Positions 4,706-51,199 of a stretch of DNA of 64,000 bases are shown one piece after another. The stretch's first letter is position 1; each line of letters starts with the position of its first letter. Source of the stretch: a phage; assembly GCA_020381345.1 (NCBI GenBank), contig GCA_020381345.1_3636.1. One strand, 5' to 3'. The notes below the pieces were generated by a model. It saw only the letters and a program-made list of their open reading frames with translations, did no database searches and was not told the origin of the DNA. The position numbers were made by a program, and so were the translations under genes.

Positions 4706-5125
4706 ATGAGCATTAAATCTAATAATCCGGCATATAGCTTTGATAACGCTTTTTGTCACGGTCCGGCGGCGAAAGGATTCGAAATCGATGGTAAACTAAT
4801 TATTGTCAATGTTGACGGGGAAGAGGTTGCAGTATATCCGGTGGCAGACGTAAAAAGCCGTTTACAATGCCGCATTGATGTTACCGCCTATCAGCTTGAT
4901 CCGGTCCGCATAGTTGCCCTGGTCCTGGAAGAAGAAATTAAAGCCATGCACCATAGCAACAGGTTTATTGGTGACGCACAGGATAATATGAAGGTATGCC
5001 GCCATAAAGTTAATGAAGTGCTTAAAGAATATGGCTTTAAAGATCTGATGATCAAACGTGAGGAAAAATTCCGCTACCGTAACGACCTGGCAAATCGAAT
5101 CTATGAAATATACGAATCATTATAA
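4706..5125 (+). CDS. hypothetical protein (139 aa)
   Basis: ORF with RBS AAGAGGTAAAAACACC-ATG; last plus-strand gene before the non-coding region. Confidence 0.55.
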   Translation: MSIKSNNPAYSFDNAFCHGPAAKGFEIDGKLIIVNVDGEEVAVYPVADVKSRLQCRIDVTAYQLDPVRIVALVLEEEIKAMHHSNRFIGDAQDNMKVCRHKVNEVLKEYGFKDLMIKREEKFRYRNDLANRIYEIYESL

Positions 5126-5172: not shown

Positions 5173-5776
5173 TCTGTATTTCTCCTACCACAAACGGCCC
5201 CACCTGGCAAGTGGAATAATTGACTAGCCATCAATCCCACACACTGTACAAATATACATGTAAAATAGCTATTGCATAATCTTTCATTGTGTGGTAGCAG
5301 GGCCATTTTTACACGTTTTTCCTTCCAAAATTGCACGTAATGCAGCTATTGCACAAAATTTAACCTGATGCATATCTTCAGTGTCTTGTCAACAACTAAA
5401 AATCTTTATAAGTCATACACTTACACAACCACAAAAGCGTGTTCTACGTGAAAAATCGGGTATAACTATAGCCACTAAATTCCAGAATTCACGTAGCGTC
5501 ACCATTCTATAGTCTGCTAAGCATTTATTCCAACCATAGAATAACGGAATAGTCAATACCTGCATAAAATAATTATTCGTTTAAACTGCATAACATAAAT
5601 CAGCCAGGGTGTCAACATTTTTCGTAAACAGTCCGAAATTGTCACGGTAAGTTATCATAAACAGAGAAATCTTTAGTCGTCTAATGTTTACTGTACATTA
5701 CTATACTGACTGGAATCATTAGATGACTAAGAGAAAGATAAGAAACAATTAACAGTCTAATTATATTAACGATAAC

Positions 5777-6051
5777 AATAACAGCGGTTAAAGTCATGGC
5801 GCGACGGAGTCGCGACATAATAACACCGAGTAACCCTCACCCCCGTGAGCGTTGCGAATGTTATTATGCCATGACTAAATCATTTCAACACGTAACTATA
5901 GGCATAACAACATTCCCTCGGTGTTATTATGTCGCTAGTTATTATATAACTGTTAACAATAACGCCTCGGGAATAGTTCTGCCTGCACGATGTTTATAAC
6001 AGCAAGTTATGATCAACATTTCACAGATTATAATAACAGCGGTTAAAGTCA
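5777..6051. repeat. 20-bp direct repeat AATAACAGCGGTTAAAGTCA, two copies
   Basis: Identical 20-mers at 5777-5796 and 6032-6051. Confidence 0.7.
5812..5935. repeat. perfect 19-bp inverted repeat flanking an 86-bp loop
   Basis: GCGACATAATAACACCGAG (5812-5830) is the exact reverse complement of CTCGGTGTTATTATGTCGC (5917-5935). Confidence 0.7.
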
Positions 6052-6709
6052 GGCGTAGAAACAGTGGAAGTGTAAACAGTCAATCATGTAAATGATAAGT
6101 ATGTGAACAGTTATCCATGTAAACTATTAGACATGCAAACAATCAGGTGTGCAAAAGTGTCAAGGGTGTCACCAGTATGTCAGACAAGTTTTCCTCCTCT
6201 TTGTCAAGTGCTGCATGAAAAATTTACAAACTGGTATGGTAGCATTTTTGCGGCCCTGTTTACATTCAGTAATGTATGTATAATCCTTGTTGTGTGGGCG
6301 TTTAGACGTCTAGACGGTTGGAAGTCCACAGGTCAATATCTAATCTATCGGCTGCTAACTATATCCCACACAAATAGTAAGAAATATAATTGTTATGCGT
6401 GTAAACAGTAACTCATGTTATCAATCCCTGTATGGATCGCCAGTGGTGCGCATAATGGGTATTATGTTAAATTGCCAGTAATGATAACTATTCTCACAAT
6501 GATAGGTATTCTCATTCCCCCACACAAGATAGGTTGCAAATGTTGTGCCACTGTGTGAACGGCCTCACCTATTAATTTGCCTCACTGCCTCGATATTTGA
6601 GAATTATTATAAGAATGAGAAGTATTCCCATTTCGTCCGCCTGGCAGCACTCCTGTAGGTCAGGTCAAAATCGGGAGAGAACTGGACCTGTTCAGATATT
6701 TCTGGCTGG

Positions 6710-7894
6710 CTCTTCAGGTCTGTGTGGGAAAAGCCGACCCCTCCGGCGGCGGGGAGGTGGTCAATTAAAAAATTTACGGGGTATATGAAGCGCTCTTCAG
6801 GTAAGGCATGTATTATGGGATGAAACCCTCTTCAGGCAATGATATTTGTGGGTGTGATATTTGCTGGAAAGCCAGATATGACGGGACTCCCGGCGGGGCA
6901 GGGGTAGTACAGACAGGGAAAATATGGGGATGTAGTTGGGTGAATTGATCGGTCAGGTAGGGTATGGAATATGTTACAGGTATGTTAAATATGGAGGGTG
7001 AATATCTGTAGGATTTGTGTGTAAAATCAAAGACTTAAGTGGTGTTGTGGTATTTTCTATAAATAATTCAAGTTTAATAGGTAATATTTGTCCCTATCCA
7101 CTTTGTGTGGTAAACAAATTCAGATGAGATTGGTTTACAAGTGTATACATAATATACAAATTAAAGATACAAGAAACCCCCCTCCCCCTTCGGCTACCAT
7201 TCACCTTTTCCTCTGACTGGTACTTAAACACTTATTCAGACTCTTCAGGTTATCACCCATATATCATATGGCAGTGACTGGTGTCCTCCGGCCCCTCTTT
7301 CGTCACCCGTCCGCTTCGCCATGCTAATGCCATAGCCAAAGGTTCGGTTGTTCACCCTGTTCACTCAGGTGTATCTCCATACCCCTTCAAACCGAAGAGA
7401 ACAGAAAACCCGAATTACTCGGTAAAAGAAAAGAGAAGAACTTAATTTTATCAGGATAGGCAAGAATGTCAAGGCATGACTGCTCACTAAACAAGCAAAC
7501 AGTCATGTGTGGGAGGTAAGTGATTGTGGTTGTAGGAAATTTAGTTGAAAGATGTGTTATAGGTGCTTCCAGCACTTTAGCCGGGCAGCTAATTGTGTGT
7601 CAGTCCAGCGGTTCATCCTCTACTTCACTGAAATCAATGTTCATGGTCTCTTCCCAACCATCGATCTCAGCACAAGAGTGGAGTTCTTTAGGGTTTACTC
7701 CCAAAGCCTCAGCAACAGAGTCTATATTTAACACCTCTGGCAGGTATGATTCATCGAATTCAAGGTAAATCAGGCCACGAGTATTGTCAGCTCCACCAAA
7801 TAGTTCTATCTTCATGAAATCTCCTTCGGAAAATGAGTGTGAACAGGATTATACGTCCCAATGCGCAGGAATTATGCACGTTTGCCTCTTCAGG
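6710..7894 (+). repeat. five same-strand copies of CTCTTCAGG
   Basis: Exact 9-mer at 6710, 6793, 6828, 7241 and 7886; copies at 6710, 6828 and 7886 are followed by TGTGGG and the one at 6793 by TGGG; two are followed by CCGGCGG(C)GGG tracts. Confidence 0.6.
7600..7815 (-). CDS. hypothetical acidic protein (71 aa)
   Basis: ORF track; strongly acidic composition. Confidence 0.45.
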   Translation of the reverse strand: MKIELFGGADNTRGLIYLEFDESYLPEVLNIDSVAEALGVNPKELHSCAEIDGWEETMNIDFSEVEDEPLD

Positions 7895-7933
7895 CCATGC
7901 TTTAGCATGAGGAACCTGTGTGGGCTCGGTGCT

Positions 7934-8146
7934 TCATAGTCTACCACCCCTGAACTCTTCGTGCTCAGGCATAATAGAGAACCAGATATCTACGATGTCT
8001 TCCCACGTTAGGTCATTAGCCTCAGGATCTACCTGGAGCGAAGATGGAGAATCTTCAGAATCGAAGTTTTCCTCTTTCACTGGCTCAGCCAAGGGACATA
8101 TAGTCACTCCTTTTGATGTCTCTTCAGATGCATGTGTGTTGATCAT
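7934..8146 (-). CDS. hypothetical acidic protein (70 aa)
   Basis: C-terminal part of track ORF 7934..8347; ATG at 8144-8146 overlaps the upstream peptide stop as ATGA. Confidence 0.45.
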   Translation of the reverse strand: MINTHASEETSKGVTICPLAEPVKEENFDSEDSPSSLQVDPEANDLTWEDIVDIWFSIMPEHEEFRGGRL

Positions 8147-51095: not shown

Positions 51096-51192
51096 GCTAG
51101 GTAAGCCCTTTGGCAAGGGCGAGGATTTTTAATCCTGAAAATAGACGAGGTAGTCGTTGAATACATAGGTGGTTCGATTCCATCACCTAGCA
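51096..51192 (+). tRNA. atypical tRNA-like element (97 nt), anticodon uncertain
   Basis: Acceptor GCTAGGT/ACCTAGC, D-arm GCCC/GGGC, T-arm GGTGG-TTCGATT-CCATC, but non-canonical anticodon arm, 29-nt extra arm, A at position 8, no CCA. Confidence 0.35.
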
Positions 51193-51199
51193 CCTTTTT

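Follow-up and report, generated by a model that had tools for sequence, protein, structure and literature searches.

Arrays of short repeats beside the cut site are the terminase recognition elements of several well-studied phages, among them the cosB R-sites of lambda, the pacL and pacR boxes of SPP1 and the pac hexamers of P1. Furthermore, T7 is said to carry arrays of short repeats, SRL and SRR, just inside its terminal repetition, as reportedly described by Dunn and Studier in 1983. A third arrangement is found in T5, where the injection-stop-signal region represents an untranslated repeat region within the terminal repeat (Davison 2020, bioRxiv 10.1101/866236). Here we analyzed a stretch of 64,000 nucleotides of phage DNA (contig GCA_020381345.1_3636.1 of GenBank assembly GCA_020381345.1; the window), in which five copies of the nonamer CTCTTCAGG, named boxes A–E, are clustered on one strand next to a terminal repeat. 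The window belongs to a Vequintavirus, an rV5-like myophage of Escherichia coli, and the region around the boxes matches approximately 120 genomes of this genus at 89–98% identity.

One likeness is to the arrays of lambda, SPP1 and P1, which also consist of several short oriented repeats beside an end-forming site and nowhere else, with copies that are partly redundant. Those arrays, however, cover about 100–200 bp and their binder, the small terminase, is known, whereas the candidate boxes are spread over 1.2–2 kb and one of them lies beyond a gene. As in T7, short same-sense repeats of a virulent phage are placed on the inner side of a short direct terminal repeat. The T7 repeats, however, have other sequences and are packed much more densely, and T7 has its own RNA polymerase and couples concatemer processing to transcription. 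The T5 region resembles the present one as a large gene-free stretch of genome-end DNA crowded with repeats, palindromes and sites for host proteins (DnaA boxes in T5; a dif-like site here, plus DnaA boxes in a divergent lineage). In contrast, it is located inside a 10-kb repeat, is tied to two-step injection and carries unrelated motifs; we know of no two-step injection in rV5-like phages. The boxes represent a previously undescribed feature, probably of a familiar kind, namely repeated protein-recognition boxes beside a phage genome end.

An oriented cluster next to the terminal repeat

A sequence-only reading of the window had reported five same-strand copies of the nonamer, three of them followed by TGTGGG, and had proposed a family of protein-binding sites or phage-specific promoter elements. 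Exact copies of CTCTTCAGG are indeed present at 6710, 6793, 6828, 7241 and 7886, all on the + strand, within 1.2 kb of DNA that lacks credible open reading frames (ORFs). Successive boxes are separated by irregular distances (83, 35, 413 and 645 bp). TGTGGG was likewise confirmed behind boxes A, C and E (6723, 6847 and 7919, that is, 5, 10 and 24 nt past the box), and the longer form TGTGTGGG is enriched, with 12 copies against 2.06 expected, seven of which fall within 5236–7924. Alignment of 20 distinct instances of the box yielded the extended consensus TG-N-CTCTTCAGG-C.

The claim that this clustering exceeds chance also held. Altogether, the window contains eight copies of CTCTTCAGG, exclusively on the + strand, compared to 0.58 expected from dinucleotide shuffles, and a count of eight was reached in 0 of 100 shuffles. 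By our own calculation, five of eight copies would land in 1.85% of the window with a binomial probability of about 1e-7. The three remaining copies (25140, 32792 and 33659) are located within minus-strand ORFs and antisense to them, so that the sense strand reads CCT-GAA-GAG. Since one-mismatch variants of the nonamer show the same strand bias, tracking the gene strand, these distant copies look like a by-product of codon usage. To cover the part of the genome outside the window, we turned to the relative EdH4, where positions 1–93000 contributed one extra copy, inside a coding sequence. Window and EdH4 taken together, a genome of ~136 kb thus holds about nine copies, five of them in 1.2 kb, and the nonamer is absent from all other intergenic DNA; it is not equally frequent elsewhere.

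The decisive context, overlooked in the sequence-only reading, is that the cluster adjoins the terminal repeat and hence the physical genome end. Terminal redundancies of 458 bp have been reported for the vequintaviruses EdH4 and HdK5 (Korf et al. 2019, PMC6563267). The exact 459-bp end duplication of EdH4 maps to 6183..6641 of the window at 90–96% identity, marking this segment as the direct terminal repeat that defines the genome ends. The termini were thus placed from a relative at 96% identity, and several independent records begin or stop at the same repeat coordinates. Given this mapping, box A starts 69 nt inside the genome end. The sequence at the right repeat boundary, ..CATTTCGTCCGCC^TGGCAGCAC.., is conserved across genera. 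In the rV5 genome paper, the region is drawn as a grey 'non-coding' box devoid of ORFs and with no function given, and its authors did not find the bidirectional terminators that they expected between genes 163 and 164 (PMC3606486). Related records show it between convergent gene blocks, either unannotated or with small, inconsistent ORF calls.

Conservation and companion elements of the boxes

The five boxes are real and conserved. Among 16 complete Vequintavirus loci, 15 retain all of them, the remaining one (ECP26) being devoid of box E. We then considered a divergent lineage represented by the IMG/VR contigs L006 (the same contig as L024), L023 and L025, in which the region-adjacent 71-aa protein is only 42–45% identical and the non-coding DNA aligns in patches only. 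In these contigs, three to six boxes with unchanged orientation occupy positions orthologous to A, C, D and E as well as two further positions, named X and F. Between L006 and the window, the box is identical in 9/9 positions at A, C, D and E, while the 40 nt flanking A and E, and those on the left of D, show identities of 0.50–0.53 as compared to 0.48 for shuffled sequence. Around box E, the only islands conserved between window and divergent lineage are TTTG-N-CTCTTCAGGC and TGTGTGGGC.

These data bear on the simplest alternative, namely that the cluster arose by chance or as a functionless by-product of mutation or duplication. Boxes B and C do represent a recent 35-bp tandem duplication, and the three copies in coding regions are explained by codon usage. 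However, the count was matched by none of the shuffles, the nonamer is intact at four orthologous sites whose flanks are at chance level, and it recurs in other genera. Cross-lineage conservation effectively refutes this explanation, to which we attach almost no credence.

To locate the region in other genera, we used the dif-like site described below as an anchor for Seunavirus 4MG, Mydovirus KPP-1 and Certrevirus PcCB7V; synteny via the homologue of PVP-SE1 gp115 had to be abandoned, the gene order not being conserved. All three phages show the same layout of rightward genes, a non-coding segment of ~1.7 kb and leftward genes, and repeat boundaries are recognizable (4MG, TTGTCCGTC^TAACAC; KPP-1, CTGTCCGTC^TAGCAC; PcCB7V, TTCGCCATGCC^TGGCAGC), giving a terminus sequence shared across genera of the form ..TCGYC.GCC^TRRCA... 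The genome of 4MG carries an exact CCTCTTCAGG ~45 nt past the boundary on its right side, with a CCCTCC..GGGAGGG hairpin behind it, and additionally the sequence cgCTTCAGG-N10-TATAAT. PcCB7V exhibits two copies of the one-mismatch variant CTCTTTAGG 25 bp apart, the second of which is succeeded by GTGTGGGAAA..AAGCC and a CCTCC-cgga-GGAGG hairpin and thereby reproduces the module of box A. In W70 (Septuagintavirus), CTCTTTAGG, likewise beside the equivalent terminus sequence, precedes two GATATTTG(T/G)GG elements, corresponding to the module of box C. The boxes of 4MG and PcCB7V are found 45–300 nt from the conserved boundary sequence, in terminal DNA that is otherwise unalignable across the genera that keep them. 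KPP-1 has degenerate copies only, plus one inverted exact copy left of the boundary (3145). All copies right of the repeat share their orientation, and the sole two on the far side (L006 6373 and KPP-1 3145) are inverted. The Phapecoctavirus Schickermooser, which possesses the neighboring 139-aa gene and a 329-bp terminal repeat, showed no boxes. Genes for HNH_3 homing endonucleases are inserted in the terminal non-coding region of L006 (7776–8486, +), L023, L025 and W70 (L028 2462–2944); the window lineage has none there.

Individual boxes are accompanied by distinct elements. Box A (6710..6718, +) occurs in all Vequintavirus loci, in L006, L025 and 4MG. Its partner TGTGTGGG (GTGTGGGAAAAGCC) at 6721..6728 (+) belongs to the same GTGTGGGAAA..AAGCC motif as that of the second PcCB7V box. 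It is followed by a GC-rich hairpin, GACC-CCTCC / GGAGG-t-GGTC (6736..6762), which we read from the sequence and which on the minus strand is succeeded by GGCTTTTCC in a terminator-like manner. CCTCC/GGAGG-type hairpins behind a box were also seen in L006, L023, L025, 4MG and PcCB7V, the last of these directly 3′ of the last minus-strand gene and followed by a run of five T residues. Box B (6793..6801, +), the 35-bp tandem duplicate of box C, is confined to the window lineage and precedes TATTAT (6811–6816, +) by 9 nt. Box C (6828..6836, +) has ATGAAACC before it and two GATATTTG elements after it (6841–6848 and 6856–6863, +), the first of which is fused to TGTGGG. Its module is the best conserved across lineages (76% identity between window 6820–6918 and L006). 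Downstream of it, a G-rich stretch is followed by an AT-rich one; an AT-rich stretch at ~7040–7170 varies between relatives. A third GATATTTG is located at 6592–6599, ~45 nt inside the repeat boundary, and in 4MG, KPP-1 and PcCB7V the inferred terminus has GATATTT(T/G) elements on either side.

Box D (7241..7249, +) is embedded in a nearly invariant non-coding block of about 330 nt (7175..7500) that is more conserved than the neighboring genes; the box is kept in L006 and L025 and deleted in L023. TATATC is present 10 nt past it (7260–7265, +), and relatives show TATATT (L006) or TGTATT (L025) 9 nt downstream. In the same block, the minus strand bears a conserved sigma-70 promoter at 7472–7445 (TTGACA-N16-TGaTAAAAT; L006 counterpart TTGCAA-N17-TATAAT), followed within ~25 nt by a CU-rich stretch and then a hairpin with a U-tract (7422–7400). 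The stem of this hairpin covaries between lineages (CCGAG/TTCGG versus CCAGAA/TTCTGG), and 7472–7400 (–) can be regarded as a candidate for a small RNA of ~40 nt. Box E (7886..7894, +) resides in a 118-nt spacer of two minus-strand genes; it is absent from ECP26 (L013). In L006, L023 and L025, all of its positions (9/9) are kept despite only 42% identity of the adjacent protein. Its partner TGTGTGGG(C) (7917..7924, +) forms a conserved island in the divergent lineage, 22–25 nt past the box.

Genome-end recognition, promoters or RNA elements

From the observed location, polarity, conservation and exclusivity of the boxes we infer that they are bound by a protein, and we tentatively assign them to a terminus-processing or packaging module as orientation-locked binding sites. 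The first half of the sequence-only proposal, protein binding, thus appears well supported, if indirectly, by a nonamer that stays invariant in diverged flanks, is orientation-locked and is restricted to one region of the genome. Adjacency to the end, strict polarity, exclusivity, conservation across genera and co-occurrence with GATATTT(G/T) elements, which also lie just inside the repeat near the cut, fit a DNA-level recognition element of a conserved end-acting protein. The boxes are found where a terminase recognition site would be expected, beside the genome-end cut (box A is 69 nt from 6641). According to this assignment, one sequence-specific, orientation-sensitive protein would recognize the boxes in double-stranded DNA; it might be encoded by the phage and conserved in Vequintavirinae, or be a host protein conserved in Enterobacterales. 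Boxes, GATATTTG, TGTGTGGG and the CCTCC/GGAGG hairpin would constitute a cis-acting module just inside the right repeat boundary that marks and organizes the genome end for concatemer processing and packaging. Several bound copies could assemble a terminus-processing complex and set its direction relative to the cut site.

A number of observations weigh against this assignment. Characterized pac and cosB sites are compact, about 100–200 bp in size, but the present array extends over 1.2 kb, and over 2 kb in L006, with irregular spacing and with box E beyond a gene. Single copies are dispensable, since L023 has lost D and ECP26 lacks E, and the Klebsiella phage KPP-1 has degenerate copies only. 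Copies B, D and F resemble promoters. The termini were mapped in the relative EdH4. We examined the 139-aa neighbor as a potential box binder and rejected it, because EdH4 lacks the gene yet retains all boxes; Phapecoctavirus has the gene and no boxes.

The promoter-like copies lead to the second half of the sequence-only proposal, phage-specific promoter elements. The boxes could act as the –35/–30 element of a class of rightward promoters in which the host sigma-70 polymerase reads a –10 hexamer 9–10 nt downstream while CTCTTCAGG is recognized by a phage factor, namely a MotA-like activator as in T4 or a sigma region 4 that has been remodelled. Transcription from the genome end would yield non-coding RNAs or the message of the HNH gene where that gene is present. 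We regard this partly supported reading as the main rival, somewhat less likely than the packaging assignment. The strongest case is copy F of L006, L023 and L025, TTGACTCTTCAGG-N10-TATATT, which combines a TTGACT –35 element, a 17-bp spacer and a TG-extended –10 element. It is located ~50 nt upstream of an HNH_3 ORF (Pfam E = 1.3e-18) with a GGAGG ribosome site, and it is degenerate in the window lineage, where this ORF is lacking. Hexamers resembling a –10 element also occur behind B (TATTAT, +9) and D (TATATC, +10, in the window; TATATT, +9, in L006), and the cgCTTCAGG-N10-TATAAT sequence of 4MG fits the same layout, so that box and –10 hexamer are a fixed 9–10 nt apart in B, D and F as well as in 4MG. 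Half of the copies show TTGnCT at the –35 position, and an A-tract precedes B and C in a position resembling that of an UP element.

On the other hand, no TAnnnT was found at the right spacing behind A, C, E and X in any lineage. If a sigma-70 promoter is taken strictly as a TTGACA-like –35 hexamer, a spacer of 16–18 bp and a TATAAT-like –10 hexamer, only copy F of the divergent lineage corresponds to one, while the copies in the window do not. The promoter claim is weakened further by the window lineage having no rightward genes, so that transcripts would run antisense into the leftward operon, and by the box being absent from every other promoter or intergenic region. CTCTTCAGG occurs in none of the promoters listed for rV5 (33 of the sigma-70 type and eight 'late'); the rV5 late-promoter consensus tGTGGTAaAAtA resembles the partner element TGTGTGG. 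A generic consensus scan for promoters called no copy of the box, with none in the window reaching 9/12. No MotA- or AsiA-like factor was identified among proteins that were not searched systematically for activators, and the flanking proteins lack informative domains. No usable Vequintavirus transcriptome was found in the literature.

Compared with the middle promoters of T4, which combine a MotA box centered at –30 with a sigma-70 –10 element at a fixed distance of 11–13 bp in the layout of sigma appropriation, B, D and F are alike in having the box at about –31 to –23, TAnnnT 9–10 nt on and a weak or absent –35 element. Unlike the T4 promoters, half of the boxes have no –10 element, and the boxes are confined to the terminus instead of preceding a class of genes. 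To our knowledge, rV5-like phages have no MotA or AsiA homologue. We rank terminus processing or packaging first, promoter boxes second and other transactions at the genome end third. The first two models are not exclusive, as a terminus-organizing protein might also regulate local promoters.

The boxes might instead act at the RNA level. In leftward read-through transcripts they would appear as CCUGAAGAG, often after CCCACACA, and could be processing or protein-binding sites; on the other strand, they would be present as CUCUUCAGG within rightward non-coding RNAs. Consistent with such a role, box E lies within a leftward polycistronic unit, the region holds a conserved minus-strand promoter and terminators, and a small hairpin with differing stem sequences separates CCCACACA from the box at E in both lineages. 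Nevertheless, we judge this explanation improbable. No Rfam match with an E value of 10 or better was obtained for 6600–8000, fold z-scores were unremarkable (–1.17 to +0.65 for both strands of 6690–7080 and 7165–7440), and the distance from CCCACACA to the box varies from 2 to 25 nt. Box A may not be transcribed at all, since it is located just beyond a terminator-like minus-strand hairpin. A search of the whole window with Rfam 15 at the gathering threshold revealed nothing except tRNAs elsewhere. Two specific resemblances were also discarded: the minus-strand CCUGAAGAG contains the CUGANGA of a hammerhead core, without the stem II/GAAA arrangement or an Rfam match, and the likeness to lambda boxA/boxB (box B to CGCUCUUA, minus-strand C to the nutL boxB loop) does not hold across copies.

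A dif-like site and the surroundings of the genome end

Within the terminal repeat, 6445–6472 (+) reads GGTGCGCATAA-TGGGTA-TTATGTTAAAT, a near-perfect dif site of E. coli, the target of XerC and XerD. The dif site of strain K-12 is GGTGCGCATAATGTATATTATGTTAAAT (PMC2731167). Both 11-bp XerC/XerD arms of the window site are identical to it, with two mismatches in the 6-bp center. Of 5426 complete E. coli genomes, 5403 have one chromosomal locus that matches this stretch. The arms are invariant in every Vequintavirus locus examined, and the site is present in both repeat copies of EdH4. Related sites at the equivalent region of 4MG, KPP-1, PcCB7V and W70 have an unchanged XerD arm and one or two changes in the XerC arm. 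The centers always differ from the host's TGTATA. A search of a phage collection also listed candidate matches in many phages of Cronobacter, Enterobacter, Erwinia, Salmonella and Klebsiella as well as known Xer-exploiting elements, e.g., CTXphi and gokushoviruses. Host XerCD could cyclize a linear genome that carries such a site in direct repeat at both ends, as Cre-lox does in P1, and centers unlike that of the host would disfavor recombination with the chromosome. Our literature search revealed no paper linking Vequintavirinae with Xer or dif.

In L006 (6845–6884), as in L023 and L025, three perfect tandem DnaA boxes (TGTGGATAA) take the place of the dif-like site. They recall the DnaA-box array in the injection-stop region of T5.

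This setting raises the question of whether the boxes assist or guide, in a polar manner, some other DNA transaction of the genome end, such as Xer recombination at the dif-like site 240 nt off, replication priming or initiation, control of ejection as has been proposed for the injection-stop region of T5, or nuclease protection. Several features are in line with such a function: the strict polarity of the boxes relative to the end, the untranslated region rich in repeats and palindromes as in the T5 region, the dif-like site inside the repeat, the three DnaA boxes in the equivalent repeat of the L006 lineage, and the G-rich and then AT-rich stretch downstream of box C. We nonetheless consider it unlikely. 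The L006 lineage has boxes but no recognizable dif-like site, and KPP-1 has the site with degenerate boxes. As each keeps only one of the two, boxes and site are independent; in particular, the boxes do not depend on a site that the L006 lineage has lost while keeping them. Accessory sequences of Xer sites such as cer and psi would be expected on the XerC side, but the boxes are on the side of the XerD arm. The irregular spacing and the lack of an adjacent initiator gene speak against iterons, no DnaA box within one mismatch was found in the non-coding region of the window, and the convergence of genes on the region fits a terminus better than an origin.

Neither the box nor its partner TGTGTGGG matches Chi (GCTGGTGG) or KOPS (GGGNAGGG). 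These are likewise short asymmetric motifs for which orientation relative to a DNA end or to dif matters, but apart from the different sequences, five copies are far below the number of a genome-wide skewed motif. A combined model, in which the boxes would be KOPS-like guide or loading sequences for an end-acting translocase (the phage terminase or host FtsK) and part of a terminal module that borrows XerCD via the dif-like site in each repeat to cyclize or resolve the genome, as with Cre-lox in P1, appears to us a distant prospect.

Further observations concern the DNA around the terminus. Directly left of the terminal repeat, 5850–6175 is a hypervariable AT-rich stretch with repeats of the type ATAATAACA and a perfect 19-nt inverted repeat (5812–5830 / 5917–5935); conservation jumps from ~0.1–0.5 to ~0.9 exactly at the repeat boundary at 6183. 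Near the boundary (6480–6514 and 6592–6641), we noted a tandem pair of 18-bp AATGATAnnTATTCTCA repeats and a GATATTTGAGAAT element. Schickermooser (L026/L027), an unrelated Phapecoctavirus, has similar forms, AATGATAATTATTCTCATT and GATATTTGGGAAT, in its terminal repeat, so that these elements may be shared sites for terminase or a host factor. The 139-aa protein encoded at 4706–5125 (+), phrog_12277, adjoins the terminus in both Vequintavirus and Phapecoctavirus at 88–99% identity. It is far more conserved than its neighbors, yet deleted in EdH4. The small flanking proteins showed no informative domains except for a GapR-like regulator three genes away, and the 'FtsK' label given to a neighboring 87-aa protein in some records was dismissed, as no similarity to FtsK was found in Pfam or PDB. 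Far from the terminus, ARAGORN called a tRNA-like gene of 99 nt whose anticodon has four bases (atcc) in the tRNA cluster (51096–51194). Its Rfam tRNA score is weak (35.5 bits), and it could be a frameshift-suppressor-like tRNA, an intron-containing tRNA or a pseudogene.

For the rV5-like phages, these results mean that a 'non-coding' box of ~2.5 kb, which has had no assigned function since 2013, holds the genome ends together with deeply conserved, orientation-locked elements. It becomes a candidate cis-acting module whose part in packaging, end processing or early transcription can be tested. Collections for typing, biocontrol and therapy make wide use of rV5-like phages. Defining these elements is of value for the correct orientation and annotation of genomes, for phage engineering, where it shows which DNA must stay in cis, and for understanding how myoviruses with short terminal repeats make and use their ends. 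The dif-like site, if functional, would add large virulent tailed phages to the filamentous phages and microviruses that exploit Xer.

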